From the sequence record SRR31156797_1290: DNA of 42,818 nucleotides, one strand, 5' to 3'. Below the pieces are notes generated by a model, which saw only the letters and a program-made list of their open reading frames with translations, searched no databases and had not been told where the DNA came from. This document shows, piece by piece, positions 5,671 through 41,535 of this stretch. Position numbers and translations under genes: made by a program. Numbering within the stretch: the stretch's first letter is position 1; the number at the start of each line of letters is the position of its first letter.

Positions 5671-7035
5671 ATGAAAAAATCCAATATTCTAATTGTAGAT
5701 GACAATAAAAGTGTGTTAAGTGCACTTGATCTATTATTGTCTCCTTACTGCAAGAACCTAAAATGTTTATCATCACCGAAAATTTTACTGTCCGAACTTC
5801 AATCGGAGCACTACGATGTGGTATTGTTGGATATGAATTTTAAGGCGGGTATCAACAATGGAAATGAGGGTATCTTTTGGTTGAATGAAATATTATCTCA
5901 AAACCCTGGCATTAGTGTAATCATGATTACTGCCTATGGAGATGTTGAATTGGCGGTAAAAGCAGTTCGATCGGGAGCTACTGATTTTGTGTTGAAGCCA
6001 TGGGAAAATGAAAAAATGATTGCTACAGTTGATACGGCTTGTAAATTGAGTCAATCGAAGAAAGAGGTTCGAAATTTACAACTAAAGGAGAAGCAACTGA
6101 TTGAAGAAATCAACGGTCACAATAAAGATTTGATAGGCTCATCTCCAGCTTGGGGACGAGTTTTAAATTTGGTGCAAAAGGTGGCTAAAACCAATGCCAA
6201 TGTTTTGATAACAGGTGAAAATGGAACAGGAAAAGAGTTGGTGGCTAAGGAAATTCATCGCTTGTCAATAAGATCAAAAAGAGTAATGGTAAGTGTAGAT
6301 ATGGGCTCCATTGCTGAGTCCTTATTCGAAAGTGAATTGTTTGGGCATAAGAAGGGAGCTTTTACCGATGCACATTCCGATAGAATGGGAAAGATTGAAG
6401 CTGCTAACCGGGGAACACTTTTTCTTGATGAAATAGGCAACTTAACTATGCCAATGCAGGCAAAACTGCTTTCGGTATTGCAAAACAGAATATTAACTCG
6501 CGTAGGAGACAATTCTATTCAGGAAGTTGATCTACGTTTGGTTTGCGCTACCAATAGTAATTTGCAGCAAATGGTGAATGAGGGTCGATTTCGTGAGGAT
6601 TTATTATACCGAATAAACACCATACAGATTGAGTTGCCACCTTTACGCGAGCGGGTAGAAGATATAGAGGAATTGGCGAATTTCTTCATCTTAAAATATG
6701 CTGATAAATACAATAAGAATCAATTAAAAATTAGTGCGAACGGAATCAGTAAACTGAAAGATTATCACTGGCCTGGTAATGTGAGGGAATTGCAGCATGC
6801 AATTGAAAAGGCAGTTATTCTTAGCGAAAACCATGTGTTGAATGGCTCTGATTTTATTTTTAAAACGGATGAAATTTCTGGAGTCAATCGTTTTGATGGA
6901 ACCTTAGAGGAGATGGAAAGAAAATTGATAGGCGCTGCCATTGAAAAGCAAGCAGGAAATTTATCTGCGGTTTCAAACCAGTTGGGAATAAGTCGACAAA
7001 CGCTTTACAATAAAATAAAAAAGTATGACCTATAA
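5671..7035 (+). CDS. Sigma-54-dependent response regulator (NtrC family; REC-AAA+-Fis HTH)
   Basis: Receiver (LIVDD...LLDMN), Walker A GENGTGKE, ESELFGHKKGAFTDA, LFLDEIG, WPGNVREL, C-terminal LGISRQTLYNKIKKY. Confidence 0.96.
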   Translation: MKKSNILIVDDNKSVLSALDLLLSPYCKNLKCLSSPKILLSELQSEHYDVVLLDMNFKAGINNGNEGIFWLNEILSQNPGISVIMITAYGDVELAVKAVRSGATDFVLKPWENEKMIATVDTACKLSQSKKEVRNLQLKEKQLIEEINGHNKDLIGSSPAWGRVLNLVQKVAKTNANVLITGENGTGKELVAKEIHRLSIRSKRVMVSVDMGSIAESLFESELFGHKKGAFTDAHSDRMGKIEAANRGTLFLDEIGNLTMPMQAKLLSVLQNRILTRVGDNSIQEVDLRLVCATNSNLQQMVNEGRFREDLLYRINTIQIELPPLRERVEDIEELANFFILKYADKYNKNQLKISANGISKLKDYHWPGNVRELQHAIEKAVILSENHVLNGSDFIFKTDEISGVNRFDGTLEEMERKLIGAAIEKQAGNLSAVSNQLGISRQTLYNKIKKYDL

Positions 7036-8368
7036 GCACTATAATCTTGCTCTCACATTTCGATTGGCAATATTGGTAGGATCTTCTGCTTGGATTGGAA
7101 TTACCATCGTTGATAAAGCCTATTATTCCTTAGCCTTTGCTTCTGTGTTCTTGCTGATATCCATTTGGGTTTTAATTCGATTTTTGAATAAAACACACAA
7201 GCAGATGGATTTCTTTATCAAGGCAATTAAGAATGAGGATACCACACTTAGGTTTCCCCAGAAATCGGGGAATCTTATTATAAATGAATTGCATCAAAGT
7301 TTAAACGAACTGAATTTTATTTTGCAGGAAGTACAGGTAAAATCAAAAATAAAAGAAAAATATTTTGGCGAGATTTTACAGAACATTTCAACAGGAGTAG
7401 TTGTTTTGTCGGAGCAAACACATGTTACCGATGTAAATGCAGCCGCTCTGGAGTTGTTTGGATTGAAAACCTTCACTCACATTAGTCAGTTGAATCGGAT
7501 TGATTCTAAGTTTGCCGCAGATCTTGCAGGCATTCAGAACAAGCAAAAAGTAGTTCTTGATTTAAATACAAGCAAAGAGCAAATTCAAATCAATACAGCT
7601 TGTTCCGAAATCAACCTCGAGAACGAAAAAGTAAAGTTGATTACTCTTCAGGATATTAGAGGGGAATTGGAACGAAAAGAGATTGATGCCTGGGTAAAAT
7701 TGATTCGGGTTTTGAGTCATGAAATCATGAATTCACTCGCTCCTGTTACCTCTATCGCACAATCCTTAAAGAAAATATGGGAAGAGCAAATAGAGAGTGA
7801 GGATTCGAATTTACCCGAAATAAAAGTCGCCAAAACCGTAAGTGGCTTGGGTGTGATTACTGAAATGAGTGAAGCATTGATCCGATTTGTTCAATCGTAT
7901 AGAGTTTTGTCTAAAGCACCAAAACCAGTACTGTCAAAAATTCAAGCACAATCCTTTATCGATAGATTAAGTATCCTCTTATCTCCAATAAAAGAAGATT
8001 TTGAGGGAAGCTTGCGGGTAAATTTACCGGCTAAAAACTTTGAGTTTATTGCCGATGAACAAATGATGATACAGGTAATTATCAATTTGGTAAACAACTC
8101 CCGAGAAGCATTTAACGGAGAGGCAGAAAGCTCAAAGATCGATATCAATCTAATTAAAAAAGGACAGTTTACCGAGATTAGAGTTAGCGATAATGGACCG
8201 GGTATACCTGAGGAAATTAGCGATGAAATATTCATTCCTTTCTTTACCACCAAGCAAAAAGGATCGGGTATTGGTTTGAGTTATTCCCGTCAGATTATTA
8301 GAGCCCATGGCGGTAGTTTGTTCTGCAAATCTAAAGAAGGGGAGACGGTATTTACCATTAAAATTTGA
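7025..8368 (+). CDS. Membrane sensor histidine kinase (NtrY-like, PAS + HATPase)
   Basis: Two N-terminal TM helices; H-box LSHEIMNSLAP, N-box NLVNNS, DNGPGI, FIPFFTTK, GSGIGLS; overlaps the regulator stop. Confidence 0.95.
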   Translation: MTYKHYNLALTFRLAILVGSSAWIGITIVDKAYYSLAFASVFLLISIWVLIRFLNKTHKQMDFFIKAIKNEDTTLRFPQKSGNLIINELHQSLNELNFILQEVQVKSKIKEKYFGEILQNISTGVVVLSEQTHVTDVNAAALELFGLKTFTHISQLNRIDSKFAADLAGIQNKQKVVLDLNTSKEQIQINTACSEINLENEKVKLITLQDIRGELERKEIDAWVKLIRVLSHEIMNSLAPVTSIAQSLKKIWEEQIESEDSNLPEIKVAKTVSGLGVITEMSEALIRFVQSYRVLSKAPKPVLSKIQAQSFIDRLSILLSPIKEDFEGSLRVNLPAKNFEFIADEQMMIQVIINLVNNSREAFNGEAESSKIDINLIKKGQFTEIRVSDNGPGIPEEISDEIFIPFFTTKQKGSGIGLSYSRQIIRAHGGSLFCKSKEGETVFTIKI

Positions 8369-11249: not shown

Positions 11250-11612
11250 ATGATGAATCCAAAACAAATTGTAGAAAAATGGGTTGAAGTGTTCAACCGG
11301 GGAGATGCAGATCGAATTGCTGAATTTTATCACGATGATGCAATTAACCATCAGGTAGCCAACAAAGAGATTGAAGGAAAAGAGGCGATTCATAAAATGT
11401 TTGAAGAAGAATTTGCTCTTGCTGATATGACCTGTATTGTTGAAAATATATTTGAGGATGGTGAGTGGGCTATATTGGAGTGGAAGGATCCTTTGGGTTT
11501 GCGAGGATGTGGGTTTTTCCACATTACAAATGGGAAAATTAAATTGCAACGAGGCTATTGGGACAAGCTCTCCTTTCTTAGAATGCACAATTTAGCAATA
11601 CCTAAAAAATAA
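11250..11612 (+). CDS. SnoaL-like / NTF2-fold protein
   Basis: IVEKWVEVFNRGDADRIAEFYHDDA...GKEAI...FHITNGKIKLQRGYWD pattern. Confidence 0.85.
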   Translation: MMNPKQIVEKWVEVFNRGDADRIAEFYHDDAINHQVANKEIEGKEAIHKMFEEEFALADMTCIVENIFEDGEWAILEWKDPLGLRGCGFFHITNGKIKLQRGYWDKLSFLRMHNLAIPKK

Positions 11613-11688
11613 AGTGGAATTAATTGCTCAGAAAAAAGATTGCATGTAGTTTTATGGCAAGAGCAATTATCTAAATAAATCATATCAA

Positions 11689-11786
11689 ATGAAACGTCCA
11701 GGATTAAATAGTTAGTGAGTCCAATGGGGACATAATTATTTAACTCATGGGAAGTTCCTTCTGGTAAAAAAATAAATTTTAAGCAG
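11689..11786 (+). promoter_or_regulatory. Conserved structured leader, copy A, with 8-codon uORF MKRPGLNS (11689-11715)
   Basis: Shares ATGAAACGTCC, uORF length, a central hairpin and TCATsGGAA(T)GTTCCwTCTGGTA...CAG-ATG with 23610-23712. Confidence 0.6.
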
Positions 11787-12701
11787 ATGAAAAGAATAGT
11801 ACTAGCTATATTAATTCTAAGTACAAGTTTGTGTGTGCAAGCTAAAAAATACAAACTGGCATTAAATCTTGAACAAGGGAAAGAATACCATCAAAGTTCT
11901 ATTGCAGACATGACCATTAGTCAGAACTTTAACGGAATGGATATGGATGTTGAAATGACCGTAAAAGGCAATTTGTCTTTTAAAGTGATAGAACTGACAG
12001 ATGACCATTACAATATGGATGTTTTCTATGAAAATATTGCCATGGAGATGGAAACGCCTCAAGGAAAAACGGCCTTTAGTTCGGAAAATGCCAAGCCCGA
12101 AGATATGATGTCTACCATGCTGTCGAAACTTACAGATAAGCCATTTCAGGTGAAAATGACCAAAAGTGGGAAGGTAATTGAGATTAATAATATGGACAAT
12201 TTGTTTATAGGCATGTTTGATGGAATGGAGCTAAACGTGCAACAAAAAAACCAATTGATAGCTCAATTGAAACAATCTTATGGTGAGAAAGCCTTCCGCG
12301 GAAGTTTTGAACAAGTAACAGCCATTTATCCTGAGGAGGAAGTTGCCATTGGTGACAAGTGGAATACCGAAACAAATCTGGAGGCAGGCATGTCGGTAAA
12401 ATTAAAAACCGATTTTACCTTTAAAGCTGAAAATGATACGCATTACCTAATTCAGGGAACAGGAACATTAATCAACAATGAAAATTCTCCTTACGTTAAG
12501 AATAATGGTATGGATATTAAAATTGATTTGAATGGTAGCCTGGTTTCCGAAATTAAGGTGGATAAAGAGAGTGGTTGGATTATTGAAGCAACCATTACAC
12601 AGGATTTAAATGGAAACACTCACATGAAAGGAAATCCTCAAATGCCGGAAGGTATGAGTATTCCGATGAGCATAAAATCGAAATCTGTAATTACCAATTA
12701 G
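11787..12701 (+). CDS. Exported DUF6263-like protein
   Basis: Signal peptide; L(A)LNLEQGKEY, YPEEEVAIGDKW and KVDKESGWI motifs recalled for this Bacteroidota family. Confidence 0.7.
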   Translation: MKRIVLAILILSTSLCVQAKKYKLALNLEQGKEYHQSSIADMTISQNFNGMDMDVEMTVKGNLSFKVIELTDDHYNMDVFYENIAMEMETPQGKTAFSSENAKPEDMMSTMLSKLTDKPFQVKMTKSGKVIEINNMDNLFIGMFDGMELNVQQKNQLIAQLKQSYGEKAFRGSFEQVTAIYPEEEVAIGDKWNTETNLEAGMSVKLKTDFTFKAENDTHYLIQGTGTLINNENSPYVKNNGMDIKIDLNGSLVSEIKVDKESGWIIEATITQDLNGNTHMKGNPQMPEGMSIPMSIKSKSVITN

Positions 12702-23057: not shown

Positions 23058-23274
23058 TATAAGTAAAGTTATAGTTTAGTGATCATCCTCCAATAATATT
23101 GTGCAAATTCTCAATGCTTATGTCTATTCATGAAGGCTTGTCAATGAGGAAAACAGGAGAAATGGATTGTTTTAAAAGATTCAAAACGATAATCATACGC
23201 CTAAATTCCTCCGATCATTTCAAATGTATTAACAAAACAAATTCTAAACAAGATTATTAAGCATATTTATTTGT

Positions 23275-23387
23275 GTAGGGTCACGCCATGGCGTGACCTT
23301 ACGAATAGCATGCCATGGCATGTCCCCACGTTTGGAATGAAAAATGATGGGTTTGTTATGAATGGATACGCCGTGGCATGTCCCTAC
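23275..23387. repeat. REP cluster (3 copies, same family as RAYT-flanking REPs)
   Basis: GTAGGGTCACGCCATGGCGTGACCTTAC (23275-23302), GCATGCCATGGCATGTCCCCAC (23308-23329), GGATACGCCGTGGCATGTCCCTAC (23364-23387). Confidence 0.88.
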
Positions 23388-23609
23388 ATGATTTATCTGA
23401 ATTTATTCTAAATACAAACTGTATATTCCGATCACTTTATCTGATTATGCTCGAAATGGCGAAACCGATTGCATTTAGGGGTATTCAGAGCTTCAACTCT
23501 TAAAATCTTGAAATACGTAATCGTTGTGGGTGAACATAACTGAAGTGATAAGGGTTTAGATTTCATATATTTATTCAGTAGTTAATACTTGAACTCAAAT
23601 AATAAATCT

Positions 23610-23712
23610 ATGAAACGTCCGTGCCTAAAGGAGTAAAGAGCTCTCAAATGAGTCGAATCTTTAGTCATCGGAATGTTCCATCTGGTACGAAATCAAAAAC
23701 CAATTATAACAG
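23610..23712 (+). promoter_or_regulatory. Conserved structured leader, copy B, with 8-codon uORF MKRPCLKE (23610-23636)
   Basis: Homologous to 11689-11786; CTAAAG/CTTTAG inner stem and TCCG/CGGA outer pairing. Confidence 0.6.
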
Positions 23713-24612
23713 ATGAACACGGCGAAAAAAAACGACAAGTCCCGAAGAAGATTCCTGCAAAACCTGGGAATGGCAGGAGCCAGTGCCGTTGCCGGATCTG
23801 CCTTACTACTACAAGGCTGTTCCGATTCTGGTAAAGCCAGCGGCAACAAGGTAAAAGTACTCACCCCCGACAACAAATTGGTAGAAGTTGATGTTGCTCA
23901 CCTAAAGCCCGGTGACAAAATTCAGGATCTAACTTATCTGCAAAAGCGGGGTCGCGAAGGAATCCCTGGAAAGAAATTTGTAATGGTGGTAGATCTGGCA
24001 AAATGTAAGAATGCACGCAAGTGCATGAAGGCTTGCCAAAGTGCTCACCAATTGAAACCGGAAATGCACCATATTAATGTATTGGAAATGGAAGATCCGG
24101 TAAAGAACACCTCTTATTGGATGCCAAAAACCTGTCAGCATTGCGACAACCCACCATGTGTGTCGGTTTGTCCTGTTGATGCAACTTTCAAGCGACAAGA
24201 CGGAATTGTATTGATCGACAACGAGCGTTGCATTGGTTGCAGATTCTGTGTGGCAGCCTGTCCTTACTCGGCACGTACTTTCAATTGGACCGAACCTAAA
24301 AATTCCGATCAGTTTGCCGATGAGGTTTACGATATGGAACTAAACGTACCTCAGAAGAAGGGAACAGTTACCAAGTGTGCTTTCTCGGCTGACCAGTTGC
24401 GCGAAGGGAAATTGCCTTACTGTGTATCGGCTTGTCCGAATGGAGTGTATTACTTCGGCGATCAGAACGAGGATTTGGTCACTAACGGTACCACCCGAAA
24501 AACAGTTCGCTTAAGTGCTCTTCTCGATGAGAATGCGGCTTACACCTTAATGCCTGAGCTGGGAACCAAACCAAGCGTTTACTATTTGCCTCCAAGAGAG
24601 AGTGAGGGATAA
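23713..24612 (+). CDS. Tat-exported 4Fe-4S dicluster protein (NrfC/DsrO/TtrB-like)
   Basis: SRRRFLQ twin-arginine signal; CQHCDNPPCVSVCP and CIGCRFCVAACPY motifs; first and fourth Cys motifs each lack one Cys. Confidence 0.92.
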   Translation: MNTAKKNDKSRRRFLQNLGMAGASAVAGSALLLQGCSDSGKASGNKVKVLTPDNKLVEVDVAHLKPGDKIQDLTYLQKRGREGIPGKKFVMVVDLAKCKNARKCMKACQSAHQLKPEMHHINVLEMEDPVKNTSYWMPKTCQHCDNPPCVSVCPVDATFKRQDGIVLIDNERCIGCRFCVAACPYSARTFNWTEPKNSDQFADEVYDMELNVPQKKGTVTKCAFSADQLREGKLPYCVSACPNGVYYFGDQNEDLVTNGTTRKTVRLSALLDENAAYTLMPELGTKPSVYYLPPRESEG

Positions 24613-24626
24613 GTTTGAGGTTGATG

Positions 24627-24757
24627 CACCCCTCTCTCTGTTGGGATCTTCCCTGGTAGGGGAGAATGAAAGGATTGAGAGAAGGCTCATTAGAAGTTAC
24701 ATCAGATAAAGTTGAAGTCTTTCCCTTATAGGGAAAGTGCCGATAGGCGAAAGGGTG
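24627..24757. repeat. Composite inverted repeat (CCCCTC/GAGGGG-type REP-like doublet)
   Basis: CACCC...GGGTG outer ends; inner hairpins TTCCCT-ggt-AGGGGA, TTTCCCT-tat-AGGGAAA and GCC-gata-GGC. Confidence 0.6.
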
Positions 24758-24828
24758 TTCTTCTAAAGAAGCAAAAGGGTGTATGATAAAACAATAAACC
24801 ATTGACTAATTACTAATGACTATTTCCT

Positions 24829-26151
24829 ATGAATGAAACGATAACAAAAGAGCTGAGCGAATCGCAAATCGATCAGGATCTTTTAAAGAATGTGAACTGG
24901 GGAGGCAAATTCAAGCTTTGGCTTGGCTTTCTTTCGGTTTCACTTATAATTTGTTTGTATTACTATTATCTACAATTGTCAAACGGATTGGGCGTAACGG
25001 GTCTTCACGACTATGTATCCTGGGGCATCTACATTTCCAATTTTGTATTTTTTGTGGCAACCTCTTTAATAGGAATGCTTATTTCCTCGGTTCTGGGACT
25101 GATGAATGTGCATTGGGTAAAACCTTTGGCTCGTATTGCCGAGCTGGTTGCAGTAGCCTTTGCCATGGTGGCAGGCTTAATTATTATTACCGATATGGGT
25201 AGACCAGACCGATTGCTAAATGTATTCATGCACGGTAGGGTACAATCACCAATTGTTTGGGATATCGCAGTAGTGGTTACCTATGTTGCCATTAGTGCTC
25301 TGTTGTTTTACATTCCTATGTTGCCCGATATTGCGCTTTGTCGCGATAAGCTGAAAGATGTACCGAAGTGGCAGCAGAAAATGTATAAGATTCTGGCACT
25401 GGGCTGGAGCGGAAAAGCCAAGCAATTTAAGATCATGCACAACTACACGCGTATCTTATTAATCCTGATTATTCCAATCGCCTTATCCATACACACGGTT
25501 ACCTCCTGGCTGTTTGCTATGACCCTTCGTTCGGGTTGGGATTCGCCAATATTCGGTCCTTACTTTGTATCGGGAGCTTTTGTGGCGGGTTGTGCAGCGG
25601 TAATCATCGCCATGTATTTCTTCCGTAACAATTTCAAGCTGAAGGATTACATTACCGTGGATCATTTCGATCGCATGGGTAGGTTACTGGTTTTGGTTGC
25701 CTTGGTGTATGTGTATTTCAATATCAATGAAATTATCGTGCCCGGATATAAGGCGAATACTGCCGATGCCAAGCACGTACACGAAATGTTATATGGACAC
25801 GAATCGGTAATGTTCTGGCTGGTACAGCTGGGCGGATTGGTAATCCCTTTCCTTCTGATCTTGTTCCGACCTATGCGTAGACCTTTGCCATTGGCTCTTA
25901 TCTCCATTATCATTTTGGCAGGTGCATGGTTCAAGAGAGTATTAATCGTGGTTCCCACACAGTTAACTCCTTACTATCCTATTCAGAATGTTCCTGAGGG
26001 TTGGACAGGTTATACACCTACTACTCCTGAGATTGCCGTTACGGTGGCTTCCTTCATAATTGTACTGATTATTATGACGGTTTTAGCCAAGCTGTTCCCG
26101 ATAATACCGGTTTGGGAAGTAAAAGAGGAAATTAACCACAATAAGAAATAG
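24829..26151 (+). CDS. nrfD: NrfD/PsrC-family polytopic membrane quinone-interacting subunit
   Basis: GLGVTGL..YVSWGIYISNFVFFV, RIAE, DMGRPDR, SPIVWD, HTVTSWLF, GPYFVSGA; about 10 TM helices. Confidence 0.9.
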   Translation: MNETITKELSESQIDQDLLKNVNWGGKFKLWLGFLSVSLIICLYYYYLQLSNGLGVTGLHDYVSWGIYISNFVFFVATSLIGMLISSVLGLMNVHWVKPLARIAELVAVAFAMVAGLIIITDMGRPDRLLNVFMHGRVQSPIVWDIAVVVTYVAISALLFYIPMLPDIALCRDKLKDVPKWQQKMYKILALGWSGKAKQFKIMHNYTRILLILIIPIALSIHTVTSWLFAMTLRSGWDSPIFGPYFVSGAFVAGCAAVIIAMYFFRNNFKLKDYITVDHFDRMGRLLVLVALVYVYFNINEIIVPGYKANTADAKHVHEMLYGHESVMFWLVQLGGLVIPFLLILFRPMRRPLPLALISIIILAGAWFKRVLIVVPTQLTPYYPIQNVPEGWTGYTPTTPEIAVTVASFIIVLIIMTVLAKLFPIIPVWEVKEEINHNKK

Positions 26152-26155
26152 CACG

Positions 26156-27046
26156 ATGAAGAATACGAAACGATATAGATTGATCATTCTGTTCTGCCTT
26201 TGCTTTTTGGCTGTGGCAAATGTGAATGCTCAAAGCGATTGGCAAGTTCCTGCCAAAGAAAATGAAAACTTAAGTCCTTTTCTCTTCGATGACGATATGA
26301 TTCTGGAGGGAAGAATCTCTTACGAAAACTCTTGTACGTCTTGTCATGGTACGCCGGGTCAGGATGATTATACGCCAATGGCGCCAAGTCCGGGTGATCC
26401 CGCTTCGGATCAGTTCCAACTGCAAACCGATGGGGCATTGTTCCATAAAATTAAAGCAGGTCGTGGTACCATGCCTAAGTTCGAAGATGCTTTCGCAGAT
26501 GACGAATTGTGGAATCTGATTGCTTACATCCGTAGTTTTAACAAAGACTATAAGCAAGAACTGCCTGATATGGAAGGTGTTGTGATTCCTGAATATACCA
26601 TGAACCTTAGCTTTGATGATAATGTGGACAAGTTGGTGGTTAAAGTGTTTGCAGAAGAACAGCCACAGTCAGAAGTTAGCGTTGCTGCTTACGTAATGGG
26701 AACCTTTGGTAAATATCTGTTGGGGAAAGCACAAACCAACGATTTAGGTATTGCTTATATCGATGTTGATGCTACTATGCCTGGCGACGAAGAAGGAAAA
26801 TTGAGTGTAATGGTAAAAGCTACCAAAGGATTTGCCAGAGCTAAAAAGGAGGAAATGCTAACAATGGTAGAACCTACCATTCGTAAATCTGCTATAGAAG
26901 GACGTCACTTGTGGAGTACCGATAAGATGGCTCCGATATGGCTGAAGGTAAGCTTCTTCATCACCGTATTTGGTGTGTGGTTCGTACTGCTCTTTATTGT
27001 AATTGGCTTGCGAGGTATCAATAAAGCCAATAAGGAGGAGGCGTAG
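26156..27046 (+). CDS. Monoheme cytochrome c with extra beta domain and C-terminal membrane anchor
   Basis: Signal peptide, CTSCH heme motif, DGALFHKIKAGRGTMP (axial Met), WNLIAYIRS, C-terminal TM helix. Confidence 0.88.
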   Translation: MKNTKRYRLIILFCLCFLAVANVNAQSDWQVPAKENENLSPFLFDDDMILEGRISYENSCTSCHGTPGQDDYTPMAPSPGDPASDQFQLQTDGALFHKIKAGRGTMPKFEDAFADDELWNLIAYIRSFNKDYKQELPDMEGVVIPEYTMNLSFDDNVDKLVVKVFAEEQPQSEVSVAAYVMGTFGKYLLGKAQTNDLGIAYIDVDATMPGDEEGKLSVMVKATKGFARAKKEEMLTMVEPTIRKSAIEGRHLWSTDKMAPIWLKVSFFITVFGVWFVLLFIVIGLRGINKANKEEA

Positions 27047-27099
27047 AGAACTCCTTTTTACTTTAACCTTTATACTTTGAACTTAATATCTTAAAATAT

Positions 27100-29889
27100 A
27101 TGAAACTAGCAAGGCGTGATTTTTTAAAGAGTTCGGCGGCTATAGCAGCAGCAACAGCGGTTGGCGTTGCCATTCCTGAAACTCTTAAAGCAGAAGCTCG
27201 CGAAGCCGAAAAAGGCTGGTCGTGGGACAAGGCTGTATGCCGATTTTGTGGTACAGGTTGTGGTATCATGATTGCCACCAAAGATGATAAAATACTTGCT
27301 GTAAAAGGAGATCCATTGGCACCCGTAAACCGTGGATTGAATTGTATCAAAGGCTATTTTAATGCCAAAATAATGTACGGTGCCGACCGTCTGAAGAAAC
27401 CATTGCTTCGTATGAACGAGAATGGGGAATTCGATAAAAACGGAAAATTTAAAACCATTAGCTGGGAACGTGCCTTCGACGAAATGGAGAAGCACATGAA
27501 ATCGGCGATGAAAGAATTGGGACCAACTGGTATTGGTATCTTCAGTTCCGGTCAGTATACCATTATGGAAGGATATGCTGCTTCAAAACTGATGAAGGCA
27601 GGTTTCCGTTCACATAATATCGACCCAAATGCCCGTCACTGTATGGCGTCGGCTGTGGTTGCATTTATTCAGGCTTTCGGTATCGATGAGCCAGCAGGGA
27701 ACTACGACGATATGGAAATTACCGATACCGTTGTTACCTGGGGAGCCAATATGGCGGAGATGCACCCGATTCTATGGTCGAGAATTACCGAAAATAAGTT
27801 GAGTCATCCGGAAAGAACTAAGGTGATTAACTTGTCTACCTATACCAATCGTACCTCCGACTTGGCAGATATCGAAATCATTTTCAAGCCAAATACCGAC
27901 TTGGCGATTTGGAATTATATTGCTCACGAAATTGTGTACAATCAGCCAGAGGCTATCGATTGGGATTTTGTGAAGAAATATACCGTGTTTGCAACTGGTT
28001 TTGTTGATATAGGTTACGGAATGCGTACGCCTGATCATCCTAAATTTACCGACAAGGAAAAAGAGACCGTAAAGCACGAAGTGGCGAAAAAACTGACTGC
28101 TGATGAGGGGAAAGCATTGTCGTACCTGGGGTATAAGGAAGGCGATGTAATGGAAATGACTCACCGAAATAAGGCTGTGAATCACTGGATCATCCAGTAC
28201 GAAGAATTCAAGAAAGCACTCAAGGCGTACGATCTTGATTATGTAGCTCAGGTTGCCAAAGGTGATCCTGAAGAGTCAATTGAAGATTTCAAGAAGAAGT
28301 TGAAAGCTTTGGCTGATCTTTACATTGAGAAGGGACGAAAAGTTTGTTCATACTGGACTATGGGATTCAACCAGCACACCAGAGGTTCATGGGTAAATGA
28401 GCAGGCGTATATGGTGCATTTATTACTGGGTAAGCAATCGAAACCAGGTGATGGAGCCTTTAGCTTAACAGGACAACCATCGGCTTGTGGTACCGCTCGT
28501 GAGGTGGGAACCTTCTCGCACCGATTGCCATCGGATATGGTCGTTGCGAATCCTAAGCATCGCAAAATTTCAGAAAAATTGTGGAAAGTACCGGAAGGAA
28601 CCATCAATCCTAAGCCGGGTAGTCACTTGATGAAAATCCACCGCGATATTGAGGATGGTAAGATAAAATTTGCATGGATTAATGTTTGTAATCCATATCA
28701 GAATACTGCCAATGCCAATCACTGGATTAAGGCAGCTCGCCAGATGGATAACTTTATTGTTTGTTCCGACGGATATCCTGGTATTTCGGCTAAGGTTTCC
28801 GATTTGATATTGCCTTCGGCGATGATCTACGAGAAGTGGGGAGCTTATGGTAATGCGGAACGCAGAACCCAGCATTGGAAACAGCAGGTAACTCCTGTTG
28901 GTGATGCCATGCCTGATGTGTGGCAATTTGTGGAGTTGGCGAAGCGATTCAAGCTTAGTGAAGTTTGGGGCGCACAAAAAGTTCCTGGATTAAAAGACGG
29001 TCTTCCTGATGTTTTAGAAGGAGCAAAGGCTATGGGGTACTCTCCTGATGATACGCTTTACGACGTACTGTTTGCCAACGAGGATGCGAAGAAATATGCT
29101 TGGCCAGATCCAATTGCAGAAGGAAAAATGAATACCGAATCGGGTGGTGACAAGCGTAAGGTAATTGGTTCGGATGGTAAGCCATTTGAAGGTTACGGAT
29201 TCTTTATGCACAAATACATTTGGGAAGAGTATCGTAAGTTTGGTACTGGAAATGGTCACGACTTGGCAGATTTTGATACCTATCACAAATGCCGTGGTTT
29301 AAAATGGCCGGTTGTAGATGGCAAAGAAACCCTATGGCGCTTCAACTCAGAATACGATGTGTATGCGAAGAAAGCAGATGTTGGACCTTTTGCATTCTAT
29401 GGCAAAGCCTTGAAAAAAATGCCTCAGGGATCCATATCAAAACCGGACATGTCGAAACCTAAGGTTGATTTGAAGAATAAGGCGAAGATTTTCTTCCGTC
29501 CATATATGGAAGCTCCAGAGATTCCAAGTAAAGAGTATCCATACTGGATGTGTACCGGTCGTGTCTTAGAACACTGGCATTCGGGAACCATGACTATGAG
29601 AGTGCCGGAATTGTATCGTGCCGTTCCTGAAGCATTGTGCTACATTCATCCGAAAGATGCTGCAGAGCAAGGATTGGTTGAAGGAGATTTGGTTTGGATA
29701 GAATCAAGACGTGGACGTGTGAAAGCTCACATCGAAACCAGAGGTCGAAATCGAGTGCCTAGAGGACTGATTTATGTGCCTTGGTTCGACGAGAAGGTAT
29801 TTATCAACAAATTGTGTTTGGATGCCACTTGTCCAATGTCGAAAGAGACAGACTTTAAGAAGTGTGCAGTTAAGATAACGAAAGCATAA
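27100..29889 (+). CDS. napA: Periplasmic nitrate reductase catalytic subunit
   Basis: Tat signal [15 protein letters not shown]...NCIKG; Mo ligand [49 protein letters not shown]. Confidence 0.98.
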
Positions 29890-29952
29890 TCAGGATATGG
29901 GAGGTGAGATATTGGAATATCTCTTTATCTCACTTCTACAAATCTCATATCT

Positions 29953-30744
29953 ATGAAAGAAGAATCTATGGCAACAAGAAGAAAAGTGATTCAAAGAATG
30001 CTGGAGGGAGCTGTTTTTATGGGCAGTGGAGGTTTACTGTGGGGAAAATCTGTGCAGGCGACCACCAAAGCCGATTATGTGCTTCGTCCGCCAGGTGCTT
30101 TGAAAGAGAAAAGTTTTCAGAAAGCTTGCATCAAATGTGGTCAGTGTGTGGAGGCGTGTCCTTACGATACGCTAAAACTTGCCGAACCAGGTGATGGCAT
30201 TGCCAACGGAACTCCATATTTCGAGCCAAGAAGTATTCCTTGTTATTTGTGTACCGATATGCCTTGTACTGATTCTTGCCCTTCGGGTGCCTTGGATCTA
30301 AAACTTTTATCCAAGGAAGAACAGGCTCCTGATATCAACAATTCAAAAATGGGATTGGCAGTGATTCATAAAGAATCTTGTCTGGCTTATTGGGGAATTC
30401 GTTGCGAGGCATGTTATCGCGCTTGTCCGTTGATTGATAAAGCAATTACCCTTGATTATGAGGTAAACAAAAGAACGGGTATGCATGCCAAATTGCTTCC
30501 AATAGTACATTCTGATGTTTGCACCGGTTGTGGTGTTTGCGAACAGGCATGTATAGCTGAGAAAGCTGCAATATTCGTTTTGCCTATCGACAAATCAACT
30601 GGCGAAGTGGGAGACCATTACATAAAAGGTTGGGAGAAGGAAGATGAAAAGCGCATAAAGGAGAAAATCGAAAAACCAGATGACGACAAGGATGTTGATT
30701 CGGCAATTGATTACCTAAATGACGATGATTTAATCGACGACTAA
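29953..30744 (+). CDS. napG: Ferredoxin-type protein NapG
   Basis: LRPPGAL, CIKCGQCVEACPYDTL, GTPYF, four Cys clusters, G.HYIKGW; follows napA. Confidence 0.95.
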   Translation: MKEESMATRRKVIQRMLEGAVFMGSGGLLWGKSVQATTKADYVLRPPGALKEKSFQKACIKCGQCVEACPYDTLKLAEPGDGIANGTPYFEPRSIPCYLCTDMPCTDSCPSGALDLKLLSKEEQAPDINNSKMGLAVIHKESCLAYWGIRCEACYRACPLIDKAITLDYEVNKRTGMHAKLLPIVHSDVCTGCGVCEQACIAEKAAIFVLPIDKSTGEVGDHYIKGWEKEDEKRIKEKIEKPDDDKDVDSAIDYLNDDDLIDD

Positions 30745-30754
30745 ATAAAATTGA

Positions 30755-31561
30755 ATGAGAAAATATAAGTTTTTAATACTAAGGCGAATCATTCAGCTAT
30801 CCATACTTTTTCTCTTTGTTGGAGGAAACTTTTTTGGTTGGGAATTGCTTCGAGGCAATTACAGTTCTGCCATTATTGTTGATTCTTTGCATTTGAGTGA
30901 TCCTTATGCCGTTTTACAAATATTGGCATCTGGCTTTGTGGCTTCAAGTTCTGTTTTAATTGGTGCATTCATTATTTTACTGATCTATGTTTTGCTTGGT
31001 GGTAGAATGTTTTGCTCCTGGATTTGTCCTATGAATATCATTACCGATTTGGCATTTCGCCTGCGCAGAATATTTAAAATAAAAACAGAAGCACCAGTTT
31101 CACTTCCTAGAAATTTCCGTTACTATATTTTGGCTTTAAGCCTGATAGTTTCAGCAGTTTTTGGATTGGCAGCCTTCGAAATCATTAGTCCTATTTCTAT
31201 GCTACACAGAGCCATTGTATTTGGTTCGGGAGCAGGATGGGCAATTGTAGCAGTTGTTTTCCTAGTCGATTTGTTGATTTTAAAAGCAGGTTGGTGTGGT
31301 CACATTTGTCCTTTAGGAGGATTTTATTCTCTGGTTGGCAAACAGGCTGTTATCAAGGTAAAACACGATAAGGACAATTGTACCAATTGCAATGCTTGTT
31401 TTGATGTTTGTATCGAAGAACCTGTTTTGTCGATAATTGGCAAAGAGAGTGATTTTATTCGCTCGGGAGCTTGTACCAATTGTGGTAGATGCATAGAAGC
31501 TTGCGATGATAATGCTTTGAAGTACGCTTTAAAATTTGATTTGAAAAAAAAGAATAATTGA
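30755..31561 (+). CDS. napH: Quinol dehydrogenase membrane subunit NapH
   Basis: LRRIIQL, LSDPYAVLQ, GRMFCSWICP, GWCGHICPLGGFY, two C-terminal 4Fe-4S motifs. Confidence 0.95.
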   Translation: MRKYKFLILRRIIQLSILFLFVGGNFFGWELLRGNYSSAIIVDSLHLSDPYAVLQILASGFVASSSVLIGAFIILLIYVLLGGRMFCSWICPMNIITDLAFRLRRIFKIKTEAPVSLPRNFRYYILALSLIVSAVFGLAAFEIISPISMLHRAIVFGSGAGWAIVAVVFLVDLLILKAGWCGHICPLGGFYSLVGKQAVIKVKHDKDNCTNCNACFDVCIEEPVLSIIGKESDFIRSGACTNCGRCIEACDDNALKYALKFDLKKKNN

Positions 31562-31623
31562 AATGAGTTGACGATTTGATTGAATCTAATAGCTCATATC
31601 TAAAATCTCAAAATCTATAAAAA

Positions 31624-32193
31624 ATGAAATACTTAGCCCTAATTGCACTGTTTTTTCTTGTGGCTTGTAACCAGCCTAAGGAAAATAAAATTGATGAAGA
31701 TCAATTGGGTTTTATCGATGCGGATTTAAATTCGGATGAAACCAACTTTAAGATGAAGGCCAATTTTAATGAAGATAAACCTGAGGTAGGAACCACTATT
31801 GAGCGATCTTTTGAAAATGCTCCTCCAATGATTCCGCATACAACAGCAGGTTTTTTCCCAATTAAAATGGATAATAACATTTGTTTGAGTTGTCACATGC
31901 CTGATAAGGTGGAAGAGTCCGGAGCTCGTGAGATTTCAAAAACTCACTTTCAATCGTGGCGTCCTCAATTGGTTTTGGTTGATGGTAAGTATGTAAATCC
32001 GGAAGATAAGGAAGTGTTCGTGGAAGACAGAAAAGAGCTGAATAATGCTTATTTTAATTGCTCGCAATGTCATGCTCCTCAGGCTGAAGTTACCATTGAT
32101 ATTGAAAATTTATTCACAGTTGAATTCCGTGAAACTTTTGGTATCAAAGAATCAAACCTAAAGGATAACGTTGCTGAAGGTGTAAATAATTAA
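31624..32193 (+). CDS. napB: Diheme cytochrome c subunit NapB (predicted lipoprotein)
   Basis: ERSFENAPPMIPH, CLSCH, CSQCHAPQ; lipobox LVAC. Confidence 0.95.
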   Translation: MKYLALIALFFLVACNQPKENKIDEDQLGFIDADLNSDETNFKMKANFNEDKPEVGTTIERSFENAPPMIPHTTAGFFPIKMDNNICLSCHMPDKVEESGAREISKTHFQSWRPQLVLVDGKYVNPEDKEVFVEDRKELNNAYFNCSQCHAPQAEVTIDIENLFTVEFRETFGIKESNLKDNVAEGVNN

Positions 32194-32195
32194 TG

Positions 32196-32268
32196 GTAGA
32201 GGCACAAGATCTTGTGCCTGATAATAATAGAAGATATCCGTAGAGACGTAATGCATTACGTCTCTACG
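32196..32268. repeat. GTAGAG-type REPs (second GTAG family)
   Basis: GTAGAGGCACAAGATCTTGTGCCTG (32196-32220) and perfect 30-bp palindrome CGTAGAGACGTAATGCATTACGTCTCTACG (32239-32268). Confidence 0.85.
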
Positions 32269-32287
32269 TTATATAAATATTTAGAAT

Positions 32288-32632
32288 ATGAACATTTCAA
32301 GTATAGTGATTCGATCCTTAGCTGAGCATTCAGAAAATTTGGTTGCCCTGCTTAAAGAGAGCGATTTGTGTGAATATCATTTGCATGATGAAACAAAAAT
32401 CATCGTGACAATTGAAGGGGAAGGAATTAGTGAAGAAATCGCTAAGTTGAAAAAGATTCAGAAGATAGATCATGTCATTTCTGCCGATATGATGTATTCC
32501 TATTCTGAAGATGAACTCGACAGAGAAAAAGATAAGATTGAAAAATCTGATGGAATCAATCAATGGTTGAATGACAAAAGCAAAGATGCCGGTTTGATCA
32601 ATTACGCCGGAGATCTAAAAAAGAAAATTTAA
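32288..32632 (+). CDS. napD: NapA signal-peptide chaperone NapD
   Basis: MNISSIVI...KIIVTIEGE...VISADMMYSYSEDEL; last gene of the nap operon. Confidence 0.93.
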   Translation: MNISSIVIRSLAEHSENLVALLKESDLCEYHLHDETKIIVTIEGEGISEEIAKLKKIQKIDHVISADMMYSYSEDELDREKDKIEKSDGINQWLNDKSKDAGLINYAGDLKKKI

Positions 32633-37984: not shown

Positions 37985-40018
37985 ATGAAGGAATTCTCAT
38001 CAGCCTGTCCCCGTAACTGTTACAGTACCTGTAGCATTAAAGTACGTGTGGAAGAGGACAAAGTAATTGGAATCGATCCACATCCTGAAAATAGGGCTAC
38101 ACCTGAAGGTCCTTGTATTAAAGGATTAGCTTATGTGGAGCGTGCTAATTCTAAGGATAGAATTTTGCATCCATTAAAGAGAATATCAGAGGGGAACTAT
38201 GAGTGTATTTCCTGGGAGAAGGCTTTAGATACAATTGTTGAAAAACTGAATTTCTGTAAAGAAAACTACGGTGCACATTCTGTTTTATTCTTTGCGGCAA
38301 GTGGAATGTCAGGTTTGCTGAATGGAGTAAGTACTAATTTTTGGAAACTATTCGGTGGAGCAACCACGACCTATGGGAATCTTTGTTGGCCTGCTGGTTT
38401 GGAAGCAACACGATTGACTTTAGGAGCAAACAAACACAACGCTCCCTGGGATCTGGAGAATGCAAAGCTGATACTGTTATGGGGAAAGAATCCTGCTGAG
38501 ACAAATATTCAGGAGATGATTCCTTTGGAGAAAGCACAGGAAAAAGGTGCAAAACTATTGGTAATTGACCCACGAAGAACACCTTCCAGCGAGCGAGCAA
38601 ATTCTCTATTTCAGATTAAATCGGGAACCGATGGTGCTCTGGCATTAGGGATTGCCCGAGAATTGATACACAACAATTGGATTGATAAGGAATTTATAGA
38701 AAAATATGTAATTGGCTTTGAGCAATTCAAAGAGCGAGTTGAAGCATATACATTAGACAGAGTATCAGAAATCTGTCGAATTTCGGTTGATGCCATTAAA
38801 AATTTGGCAAAACAAATTGGAACAGCTGATGCGATGACTTTGATTCCGGGATATGGTTTGCAACGATATGAAAATGGAGGTCAGACCACGCGCTGTATTC
38901 TTGCCCTTTCGATAATTACAGGAAATATTGGAAAACCAGGAGCTTGCTTTCATTACGCCAATCTGCAAAGCTATGTCTTCGATGATTTGAAAGAACCGGA
39001 ATCTTATTTCCCGGGATGCGAGCATGCAAGTTTCAGAAGAAAAATATCGGTTGCCAAATTGGGTGAGGATTTGTTGAATATTAAAAATCCGGAAGTAAAA
39101 TTCATTTGGGTGGAAAGGGGAAATCCTTTATCACAAAATCCAGATACCAATAAAATCAAAAAGGCTTTTCGAAAGGCAGATTTTAGAGTAGTTGTGGATC
39201 AGTTCATGACCGATACTACCTTAGAGGCAGATTTGATTCTACCAGCTAAGAATATGTTTGAGCAATCAGATATTGTTGGTTCATATTGGAATCCATATGT
39301 GCAATTAAGGCAGAAAGTAATGGAACCAGCTGGTGAGGTAAAACCTGAAACGGAAATCTATTATCTGTTAGCAAAGAAATTAGGATTTACAGACAAAGAA
39401 ATTAAAGAAAATATCCCTGAGCCTACTGATGAGGCTATAGAAGAATATCTAAATGCTTTCTTGAAAGATTTCCCAGAATTGAGTTTAGAGGAATTGAAAA
39501 AAGGACCGCAATTGGCAAACTCTTTTGAAGAGATTCCATTTTCAGATCATATATTTCCTACTCCATCAGGCAAAATAGAATTGTACAACGAGCAAGCGAA
39601 GGTAATGTGGGGAGTTGATCCCTTACCAGACTACGTCCCTTTGCCAGAACAAAACGAGTTTTCTTTGCAGTTGATCTCACCAAATTCGAAGAACAGAATT
39701 CATTCACAGTTTGGGAATTTAAATGTGATCAAGCAATTTGAACCCGAAGCATATCTTTTTGTACATCCATTGGATGCTGAAGATAAAACAATGAAGAATG
39801 GTGAAAAGGTGGTGATTTACAATCATCAGGGAAGAGCAGAAGTGAAGCTCCAATACGATTTGGGATTGCGAAGAGGAGATGTGGTATTGACAAATGGTCA
39901 TCAATCTCATTTGGGAGCTGCACCTAATCTGTTTACCAAAGGATGCGAAACAGATATGGGACACGGAACTGCCTTTCACAATACATGGATCAACTTGAAA
40001 TCTATTAACAATGAGTAA
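37985..40018 (+). CDS. Molybdopterin (bis-MGD) oxidoreductase catalytic subunit, no Tat signal
   Basis: N-terminal CPRNCYSTC...CIKG Fe-S motif, RILHPLKR, ISWEKALD, putative Cys ligand in GNLCWPAG, WGKNPAET, IDPRRT, DQFMTDT..ADLILPA, RIHSQF, VHPLDA. Confidence 0.92.
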   Translation: MKEFSSACPRNCYSTCSIKVRVEEDKVIGIDPHPENRATPEGPCIKGLAYVERANSKDRILHPLKRISEGNYECISWEKALDTIVEKLNFCKENYGAHSVLFFAASGMSGLLNGVSTNFWKLFGGATTTYGNLCWPAGLEATRLTLGANKHNAPWDLENAKLILLWGKNPAETNIQEMIPLEKAQEKGAKLLVIDPRRTPSSERANSLFQIKSGTDGALALGIARELIHNNWIDKEFIEKYVIGFEQFKERVEAYTLDRVSEICRISVDAIKNLAKQIGTADAMTLIPGYGLQRYENGGQTTRCILALSIITGNIGKPGACFHYANLQSYVFDDLKEPESYFPGCEHASFRRKISVAKLGEDLLNIKNPEVKFIWVERGNPLSQNPDTNKIKKAFRKADFRVVVDQFMTDTTLEADLILPAKNMFEQSDIVGSYWNPYVQLRQKVMEPAGEVKPETEIYYLLAKKLGFTDKEIKENIPEPTDEAIEEYLNAFLKDFPELSLEELKKGPQLANSFEEIPFSDHIFPTPSGKIELYNEQAKVMWGVDPLPDYVPLPEQNEFSLQLISPNSKNRIHSQFGNLNVIKQFEPEAYLFVHPLDAEDKTMKNGEKVVIYNHQGRAEVKLQYDLGLRRGDVVLTNGHQSHLGAAPNLFTKGCETDMGHGTAFHNTWINLKSINNE

Positions 40019-40059
40019 TGATCAATTAACAATTGGAGAAAAGTAGAAATTGTAAAATA

Positions 40060-40172
40060 ATCCCGAAGGGATGTAATTTGAATAACCACGGGTGAAGCCC
40101 GTGGACAACAAGATGTAAATCAATCGTCGCAACTGCAAAAGCTCAATGAAGAATTGGTGCAACATGCGGCGA
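40060..40172. repeat. Three consecutive hairpins (REP-like) in an intra-operon spacer
   Basis: ATCCC-gaa-GGGAT (40060-40072), CCACGGG-tgaag-CCCGTGG (40086-40104), TCGTCGCA...TGCGGCGA (~40124-40172). Confidence 0.55.
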
Positions 40173-40209
40173 AATATGAAGAGCTTTACATTAGTATAAG
40201 AGCAAAAAA

Positions 40210-41535
40210 ATGGAAAAAAACTCATTCATATTTAATACAAACAGATGCGTTGGCTGTAATGCTTGCGTAGCAGGTTGCAGCATTGAAAATGGCACCGATT
40301 TAATGATGAATTGGCGTGAGGTAAACACCGGAAACAAAATCAAACATCCAGGTTTGCCAGTCTTTCATTTCTCATTGGCATGCAATCATTGCGAGGGTGC
40401 TCCTTGCATGAAGCATTGCCCTGCTTTGGCTTACACACGTGATGAAAAAACGGGAGCTATCATCCATCACGCCGAGGCTTGCATCGGATGTACCTATTGT
40501 ACATGGGCTTGTCCTTACGATGCACCAAAGTTTAATCCTGCTACAAATATTGTAGAGAAATGTAATTTCTGTGTAGATAGAATATTCGATGGGAAAAAAC
40601 CAGCCTGCGTTGAAGCCTGTCCGGTAGGAGCATTGGATTTTGGACAATTGATTTTGAGTGATCAGGATAGAGTTACACCCGGTTTTGTGGATATGGGAAT
40701 CAAACCATCCATTCAATTGATTCCTTTACGGGAAGAAAATACTGCACCCAAAATTGAGAATACGGATCAGGTAGATATTGATGAGAAAAAGATAGAGGAG
40801 TGGTCACCTAAGCCAAAAGATAAGGTAGCACTGGATAAAGAGTGGACATTAGTATTGTTTACTCTTGCAGTTGCAGGATTGGTAAGTTGGCAAGCTGCGC
40901 ATTTGTTTGGAGCTGTTAAAATACCTATAATTCCTTTTGCAGCAATATCTGTTTTGGCAATTGCCTTAACATCATTGCACATTGGAAAAAAGCTGCGAAT
41001 GTGGCGATTCATTCTTAATCTAAAAGGCTCCTGGTTAAGTCGAGAAATATTTTCTTTTTCTGTTTTCCTAGGATGTACAGGGTTGCAGTTGATTACCGAA
41101 AATCAGCTATTTGGCTATGTAGCTTTGGCTTTTGGAATCTTTAGCTTGATATCTGTTGATATGGTTTACAAATTACTGCAGCGAAAAGATGGTCTTCCAG
41201 TGCATTCAGGAATGGTAAGTCTTACAGGTATTTTGTTTTTTGTTTGGCTGATCGAAGTCCCAATTATTATCGAACTAATAATTATATTAAAAGGAAGTTT
41301 ATACATTGCGAGGAAAGTATCATTACGACAATTGAGATTGAATTATTTTCCAGCTCTTTCATTGGTAAGAATTCTATGTTTGTTGATTCCATATATTCTA
41401 TTGGATATGCAATGGGAATTGAGCTTGCCAATTTCCTTAGCAATTATATATGCAGGAGAATTAATCGATAGAGCAGAATTTTATTATGAATCGGATGTGA
41501 TTACACCAGAGAAACAGTTACGAATTACGAATTAA
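40210..41535 (+). CDS. Fused DmsB-like 4x[4Fe-4S] subunit and DmsC-like membrane anchor
   Basis: All 16 Cys present (CVGCNACVAGC, CNHCEGAPCMKHCP, CIGCTYCTWACPY, CNFC...CVEACP), followed by EWTLVLFT, SLHIGK, NLKGSWLSRE and GELIDRAEFY of DmsC-type anchors. Confidence 0.9.
   Translation: MEKNSFIFNTNRCVGCNACVAGCSIENGTDLMMNWREVNTGNKIKHPGLPVFHFSLACNHCEGAPCMKHCPALAYTRDEKTGAIIHHAEACIGCTYCTWACPYDAPKFNPATNIVEKCNFCVDRIFDGKKPACVEACPVGALDFGQLILSDQDRVTPGFVDMGIKPSIQLIPLREENTAPKIENTDQVDIDEKKIEEWSPKPKDKVALDKEWTLVLFTLAVAGLVSWQAAHLFGAVKIPIIPFAAISVLAIALTSLHIGKKLRMWRFILNLKGSWLSREIFSFSVFLGCTGLQLITENQLFGYVALAFGIFSLISVDMVYKLLQRKDGLPVHSGMVSLTGILFFVWLIEVPIIIELIIILKGSLYIARKVSLRQLRLNYFPALSLVRILCLLIPYILLDMQWELSLPISLAIIYAGELIDRAEFYYESDVITPEKQLRITN

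Follow-up and report, generated by a model that had tools for sequence, protein, structure and literature searches.

The window analyzed here, a 42,818-nucleotide stretch of sequence record SRR31156797_1290 read on one strand from 5' to 3', contains two copies of a short, hairpin-forming leader element. Copy A (11689-11786, + strand) is flanked on its 5' side by a SnoaL-like gene and on its 3' side by the gene for a DUF6263 protein (11787..12701, +; Pfam PF19777, E = 3.1e-56), whose start region it has invaded. Copy B (23610-23712, + strand) is preceded by a 655-nt gap and followed by the first gene of an operon (23713..29889, +) whose products, as assigned with Pfam, are a twin-arginine translocation (Tat)-signal 4Fe-4S protein, an NrfD-like membrane protein, a cytochrome c and a molybdopterin oxidoreductase. 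An earlier note on this DNA, made from the letters of the window, had read the two copies as a regulon-defining cis-regulatory RNA or a leader-peptide attenuator, with a small mobile leader cassette as the alternative. Our results indicate that A and B are very probably two ordinary copies of a small, gene-less mobile DNA repeat that is common in Bacteroidales. Its habit of inserting at start codons and rebuilding them is unusual for a mobile repeat.

Both copies have the coordinates and the letters that the earlier note had given. A two-block pattern, ATGAAACGTCC-N30-60-GGAA-N1-2-TTCC, has exactly two matches in the window, both on the + strand, and matched none of 100 dinucleotide-preserving shuffles. 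Each copy opens a mini-open reading frame (mini-ORF) of eight residues, MKRPGLNS in copy A (11689..11715 with its stop, +) and MKRPCLKE in copy B (23610..23636 with its stop, +), which begin 98 and 103 nt 5' of the main ATG at 11787 and 23713, respectively, just as had been described. The minimum-energy folds of A and B hold the two middle hairpins, different in sequence, that had been named from the letters, and they also pair the 5' block imperfectly with the 3' block, again as expected. The stability of these folds is ordinary for their composition (z = -1.53 for A and -1.84 for B; 14/200 and 11/200 shuffles, respectively, folded at least as well). In both folds, CWTCTG of the 3' block pairs with the CAGATG that holds the main ATG. 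The conserved unit extends through the main start codon, a feature that the earlier note had missed.

A covariance model made from A, B and related copies scored copy A at 89.9 bits and copy B at 81.3 bits, and found no third copy in the window: the next match, of 20 bits, was the reverse strand of copy A. The view that the leader is no known riboswitch or Rfam family held up. The whole window had no match in Rfam 15 at gathering scores; the copy A region, searched with E up to 10, reached at best 17.3 bits, to an unrelated family with a gathering score of 55; and three high-copy loci of the repeat family gave nothing relevant at E<=1.

Distribution of the family

We scanned one genome per species, 185,579 species genomes in all, for exact matches to 20 specified bases of the 3' block, and found five places. 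Two of these (L004 and L005) come from an uncultured Marinifilum sp. and are orthologous to A and B, respectively, and compensatory changes distinguish the apical stem of copy A from that of L004. The other three are chance matches that lack the 5' block. Candidate matches in the families of genomes G086, G347 and G238 were likewise discarded, being chance matches in coding sequence or absent. None of 30 DUF6263 loci of at most 45% identity (L006-L035) carries the 3' block at up to two substitutions, and the orthologous Fe-S/NrfD operons in G238, G347 and G343 lack the element and have different upstream sequences.

A relaxed pattern recovered three related elements in G430, including a tandem pair that precedes an MttB-like gene, and a covariance model built from seven sequences (R1) revealed a large family. 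At E<=1, and with up to 81 candidates scored in each genome, R1 matched 46 of the 56 genomes of one Bacteroidales family, that of G108. Copies numbered at least 77 in G430, at least 67 in G421, at least 65 in G425, at least 59 in G429 and at least 35 in G434, and two further genomes of the G108 family had at least 19 and at least 18 matches; within this one family, copy number spans 0 to at least 77 per genome. Many of the matches are same-strand pairs about 20 nt apart, and tandem arrays reach three units. At E<=0.001, R1 matched 21 of 151 genomes sampled across the order Bacteroidales, several of them with 8-15 copies. These order-wide copies have the same full architecture, including CATCTG ... 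CAGATGAA.

Full-text literature searches found no published description of this family, and it looks undescribed in print. PMC8040213 describes palindromic candidate RNAs of 80-132 bp that occur only or mostly in Bacteroidetes. Some of those candidates may belong to this family.

Anatomy of the unit

We aligned 40 further loci from G421 and G430 with all other matches. The 5' part of the unit consists of RTGAAAC, three to four variable bases, CATGA and an apical region that often contains CACAMMARG and ATGATTATT. The 3' part consists of TCATG, variable bases complementary to those of the 5' part, GTTCCAY-NN-GG(CCAA), an A-rich spacer of about 20 nt and CC-NN-RTGAA. About 90-105 nt separate the two RTGAA repeats of a unit, and the hairpin itself is AT-rich and 70-85 nt long. 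BLASTN repeat matches span the distal ATG to the proximal ATGAA, which are the unit boundaries.

Two helices define the unit. The first, P1, is the long imperfect hairpin. In copy A it occupies 11689..11761 (+) in the minimum-energy fold, with a 5' arm to about 11715, an apical stem-loop at 11716-11732 and a 3' arm ending in GTTCCTT; in the fold of copy B it occupies 23610..23682 (+) and ends in GTTCCAT. Over 45 rows of the alignment, 87.8% of the lower stem of P1 is paired, versus at most 46.3% when the partners are slid, and four of its pairs show compensatory pair types.

The second helix, P2, connects the foot of the hairpin to the new start codon by pairing CAYNNG(G) with (C)CNNRUG. In copy A, the 5' strand of P2, CTTCTGG (11758..11764, +), overlaps the foot of P1, and the 3' strand lies together with the proximal ATGAA at 11783..11791 (+), where the working DUF6263 start is 11787-11789; five of the six core pairs form. 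The A-rich spacer between them (11765..11782, +; alignment A5, 88 rows) is both the loop of P2 and an element-borne leader. In copy B, CATCTG (23679..23684, +) pairs with 23710-23715 in the minimum-energy fold, the A-rich spacer that forms the loop is 23685..23709 (+), and CAGATG with the proximal ATGAA lies at 23710..23717 (+), the working start being 23713-23715.

Over 88 distinct rows, 86.8% of P2 cells are paired, versus at most 48.6% with partners slid, and none of 500 shuffles matched the P2 covariation score. Two pairs of the helix each take at least four pair types. The two variable pairs take the forms AU 56, CG 13, UA 3 and GC 2, and UA 38, CG 18 and AU 17. At the first base of the start codon, the pair is UA in 73 rows and CG in 10, such that CAC accompanies GUG starts. 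The rows are related copies and their cell counts are not independent; the distinct pair types are the safer measure. The further copies and the covariation that the earlier note had proposed to seek were found, the latter in both P1 and P2.

One position departs from pairing. Among 88 rows, position 4 of the foot sequence GTTCCAT, which faces the fourth base of RTGAAAC, holds C in 64, A in 15, G in 5 and T in just 1. Both P1 and P2 thus retain a mismatch there, which may be a recognition feature.

Four loci (L057, L059, L063 and L072) have much longer apical regions, in units of 105-118 nt; the apical loop therefore tolerates insertions, and a longer parent element that carries a gene in this loop may be worth seeking. 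At a further locus, L044, a short perfect hairpin that starts with ATGAAAC and ends with GTTAC lies about 160 nt 3' of the element and on its strand. This hairpin may be a terminator or else a family relative in minimal or decayed form.

Insertion at start codons

We compared four occupied loci, copy A, L096, L075 and L088, with their orthologues. For copy A, a metagenome scan with the DUF6263 protein found three loci. Two of these, L138 and L139 (99% and 98% identical), are occupied and begin with ATG-TAA. The third, L140 (90% amino acid identity over 104 residues), has the same promoter-like upstream sequence and a single ATGAA, and lacks the element. The sequence 5' of the distal ATGAA of copy A (11689..11693, +) is homologous to the sequence 5' of the only ATG of L140. 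Because of this homology, we read the distal ATG of copy A as the gene's original start codon, displaced and stranded upstream together with the two adenines that follow it.

The other loci gave the same picture. L096 in G430 is occupied, and its orthologues in G421, G429 and G424 are empty; in the G425 orthologue, the element lies 30 nt further upstream. L075 in G421 is occupied and four orthologues are empty. L088, also in G421, is occupied and five orthologues are empty; in the G430 orthologue, the homologous upstream sequence runs directly into a single ATGAA. A single RTGAA is present at all four unoccupied sites.

The proximal and distal repeats of a unit are not equivalent. The R of the distal RTG and that of the proximal RTG are discordant in 17 of 78 copies, and in 16 of these 17 the internal Y pairs with the proximal R. 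Similarly, of the three bases before RTG, 2.83 on average pair with the internal NNG at the proximal repeat and 1.72 at the distal repeat. Since the internal Y and NNG match the proximal copy, the proximal RTG and the bases upstream of it travel with the element. Given both the discordance of R and the proximal pairing, the two RTGAA copies are not a target-site duplication.

Together, these results show that copy A invaded the start of the DUF6263 gene; that the family is a dispersed, oriented repeat, polymorphic between orthologous loci, that occupies RTGAA start sites; and that the element brings along a new start codon together with an A-rich leader. By analogy with copy A, copy B probably inserted at the first gene of the molybdoenzyme respiratory operon, and its distal ATGAA (23610..23614, +) is presumably that gene's stranded ancestral start. 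These results fit the earlier note's alternative, a small mobile leader cassette.

A similar stretch, AGATT-G/T-CAT-R-TA-K-TT, occurs about 45 nt 5' of both copies (11630-11660 and 23555-23585), and is a candidate for a Bacteroidia -7 promoter box, which it resembles. The version upstream of copy A is kept in the unoccupied L140; this promoter-like stretch is thus part of the gene's own promoter region, outside the element. A sigma-54 promoter, an extracytoplasmic function (ECF) sigma factor promoter and a palindromic operator were considered by eye and rejected: the spacing is unsuitable and the gap between half-sites differs between A and B.

Selection on helix P2

The start codon of the downstream gene is part of P2, and this raises the question of the level at which P2 is selected. 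The element might be mobile and yet have P2 and its A-rich loop selected as RNA, forming a portable translation-initiation cassette that hosts tolerate or exploit because its start-codon helix adjusts, or shields, how the invaded gene is translated. Several observations speak for such a cassette. Among 101 copies, 47 have an ORF of at least 60 amino acids that begins at the element's own RTG, and in these P2 includes the working start codon (a further 10 are tandem-internal, 29 are neither, and 15 have no RTGAA at the expected offset). Covariation reaches into the start codon, as the pairing of CAC with GUG illustrates, and the spacer is A-rich. According to PMC13000457, Bacteroidia select their start codons by adenines that lie upstream, and not by a Shine-Dalgarno sequence.

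P2 is, however, kept equally well where its RTG starts no gene: of six pairs, 5.77 form on average in gene-fused copies, 5.80 in tandem-internal copies and 5.83 in other copies. Departures from pairing are about equally G-U (11) and A-C (15), so that G-U is not in excess, and the expression data, described below, carry no transcript ends. We consider selection of P2 as RNA possible but doubtful. Because P2 is kept equally well with or without a working start codon, we read it instead as serving the element's own propagation and not the control of any particular gene.

Relation to neighboring genes

Gene calls for this analysis were crude (ORFs of at least 80 amino acids, chosen greedily). Among 90 copies, the downstream gene was co-oriented with the element in 78 and opposite in 7, and none was called in 5; the upstream gene was co-oriented in 45 and opposite in 43. 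Orientation relative to the downstream gene is thus non-random, as the earlier note had required of a leader. At several operon junctions, 0-8 nt separate the upstream gene's stop codon from the distal RTG, a spacing consistent with that RTG being a stranded native start.

In principle, the element could be a cis-regulatory leader RNA, of the riboswitch type or bound by a protein, through which the molybdoenzyme operon is regulated together with the DUF6263 gene. In favor of this, the hairpin shows conservation and covariation, it keeps a fixed orientation and spacing relative to the start codon, P2 pairs that codon, and contigs from RNA libraries cover the element: contigs of run X3 (11550-11758) join the end of the SnoaL gene to the element, and others, of run X4 (11716-11866), join the element to the DUF6263 coding region. 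These contigs, which carry no transcript ends, strand or level, fit co-transcription of copy A with both neighboring genes.

The genes downstream, however, are unrelated. We scanned 46 of the 48 fused ORFs with Pfam, leaving out the near-duplicate orthologue rows L004 and L005, and found 107 Pfam families, none of them in more than two ORFs; GrpE, UvrD, PurD, MttB, peptidases and efflux proteins are examples. Tabulated in this way, the downstream genes give the regulon proposed in the earlier note no footing, and the family defines no regulon. The spread of copy number inside a single family (0 to at least 77 per genome), the tandem arrays of up to three units, the orthologues that occur both with and without the element, and the lack of an Rfam match also argue against a regulatory leader, as does the fact that tandem-internal units, which stand before no gene, retain P2 to the same degree. 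We therefore regard a regulatory leader as very unlikely. The A and B loci share a common insertion history, and no common regulator.

The mini-ORF

The earlier note had further proposed a leader-peptide attenuator, in which translation of the eight-codon upstream ORF opens the hairpin and so controls the main ORF. A start-like RTG is indeed present at the 5' end of 92 of 101 copies, and in 54 of these 92 it opens a four-codon mini-ORF, MK-x-(P/A)-stop, whose stop lies within the stem sequence CATGA. Neither the length nor the frame is conserved, however, an outcome that the earlier note itself had named as refuting. The mini-ORF spans 1-34 codons, and the spacing of the two RTGs is spread over the three frames, with 24, 34 and 22 copies. 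In L004, L138 and L139, the nearest relatives of copy A, it reads ATG-TAA. The eight-codon length is a peculiarity of the Marinifilum copies. In addition, no terminator-like U-tract follows the hairpin in copy A or copy B, and the RTG is explained as the displaced original start. An attenuator is, in our judgment, extremely improbable: the upstream ORF, in copy A as elsewhere, is a stranded ancestral start codon, a by-product of insertion.

Finally, integron-type attC sites or gene-cassette boundaries are scarcely credible. The hairpin does end with AAC and GTT at the positions of the attC R'' and R' boxes and conserves a mismatched base, but the copies are scattered over many contigs and their upstream genes (45 same, 43 opposite) are not co-oriented cassettes (no integron integrase was searched for). 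Tandem units are spaced by about 20 nt, and the units are bounded at RTGAA rather than at G|TT.

Proposed mechanism and the search for a mobilizing enzyme

The element sits at RTGAA, typically a start codon plus the two leading bases of a codon for Lys or Asn. The former start is left upstream, where it opens a short ORF closed by an in-frame stop in the hairpin arm, and the gene is then read from the element-borne RTG behind the element-borne A-rich leader. The foot of the hairpin, CAYNNGG, is complementary to the element's own right end, CCNNRUG. P2 might serve, for example, in end recognition on folded single-stranded DNA, as in HUH/Y1 single-strand transposons, in which case sequestration of the start codon in the mRNA would be a side effect. 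More tentatively, CAYNNGG may be a built-in guide that pairs both with the target start codon RTGAA and with the element's own right end, read by an enzyme on the folded single strand. To our knowledge, the literature searched describes no guide-directed targeting of start codons for bacterial mobile DNA.

Several points weigh against this interpretation as a whole or in part. The insertion of copy B comes without an unoccupied site of its own. That the change at the compared loci was a gain and not a precise loss is inferred by parsimony from the carriers, and precise loss is formally possible. The A/T-rich leader before the ATG of L140 resembles the family's A-rich tail; we take this likeness to be a putative low-complexity resemblance. 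The G-U and A-C counts in P2 neither favor nor exclude selection at the RNA level. Gene calling was crude, and the RNA-library data are contigs only, in which DNA carry-over is possible. Moreover, no mobilizing protein was found. The Pfam family Y1_Tnp (PF01797) was not found in G430, G421 or G425, the genomes with the most copies, nor in G038 (15 copies); the genomes searched are drafts, and the PF01797 match in G429 was weak. G434 has a Y1 gene that no element adjoins, the best model match there reaching 10.4 bits. Y1_Tnp occurred in 19 of 21 element-positive versus 92 of 130 element-negative genomes (Fisher two-sided p = 0.065), and is common overall (111/151 genomes). A Y1 transposase as mobilizer is thus unsupported, given that none was found in the three highest-copy genomes and that co-occurrence is weak.

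Relation to known repeats

Among the features tested, the defining features of the nearest known kinds of repeat are found only in part in this family. Like repetitive extragenic palindromic (REP) repeats and bacterial interspersed mosaic elements (BIMEs) that go with REP-associated tyrosine transposases (RAYTs; TnpA_REP, Y1/HUH), and like gene-less derivatives of the insertion sequence (IS) group IS200/IS605, known as palindrome-associated transposable elements, the family consists of high-copy extragenic hairpins, often tandem or composite, that neither have terminal inverted repeats at both termini nor come with a true target-site duplication. With IS200/IS605-derived miniature elements it also shares a short specific target, here the five-base RTGAA. 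Its internal segment complementary to the element end recalls IS608, where a guide pairs with the cleavage site at the element ends, and a hairpin with conserved mismatches is a further likeness to HUH/Y1 single-strand elements. PMC3733652 gives REPs as 20-40 bp long with a GTAG or CGTC tag, whereas the hairpin of this family is 70-85 nt long and CGTC is found only in an ACGTCC subfamily, others having ACATCC, ACCTGC or ACAAGC. Unlike in the REP/RAYT system, no Y1 gene was found in the three highest-copy genomes and none was found flanked by the element, and the element targets the start codon and rebuilds it.

Other gene-less repeats share its position relative to genes. The mycobacterial interspersed repetitive units (MIRUs), reportedly described by Supply and colleagues in 1997, are likewise small repeats that are oriented with flanking genes, lie between operon genes, are often in tandem and contain mini-ORFs. 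The MIRU mini-ORFs overlap the neighboring stop and start codons, whereas 54 of the 92 mini-ORFs of this family stop after four codons, some 90 nt short of the gene start, and the family has a long hairpin. Correia-type miniature inverted-repeat transposable elements (MITEs) and the REP2 repeats of Neisseria are also gene-less repeats found before genes, with which they are co-transcribed and to which they supply new leaders or 5' regions. A classical (DDE) MITE, however, has inverted repeats at its two ends, whereas the palindrome of this family is confined to the left part and the right end is an A-rich tail; in addition, the flanking RTGAA copies are not always identical, and insertion is at the start codon itself. 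Rickettsia palindromic elements, like this family, are hairpin repeats that enter genes without destroying them. They are read through as in-frame peptide insertions, whereas this family, with its three frames and intervening stops, is not translated into the gene's protein.

Surroundings of the two copies

Other features of the window deserve mention. The interval at 23058-23609, between a divergent OmpA/SprB-repeat gene and copy B, is unusually long, with about 550 nt that contain no ORF of at least 80 amino acids. A sigma-54-dependent response regulator (receiver, AAA+ and Fis-type helix-turn-helix domains) followed by a histidine kinase is encoded at 5671-8368; by eye, no -24/-12 promoter was seen near either copy. 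Two molybdopterin-oxidoreductase clusters lie within 18 kb of each other. The first (23713-32632) encodes Fe-S, NrfD and cytochrome c proteins and a 929-residue catalytic subunit, and the second (37985-41535) a 677-residue catalytic subunit and a 441-residue Fe-S protein.

Significance

Some Bacteroidales have, in each genome, dozens of genes whose translation begins at a start codon and behind a leader that a mobile repeat has supplied. This affects the annotation of start sites, the reading of "conserved 5' untranslated region (UTR) motifs" and hunts for small ORFs, in which the mini-ORFs of this family would appear as by-products of insertion. If the guide-like complementarity directs insertion, it would constitute a compact site-selection mechanism, perhaps one that can be re-targeted. 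The family clearly illustrates how selfish DNA can curb the damage it does, by restoring what it has interrupted.

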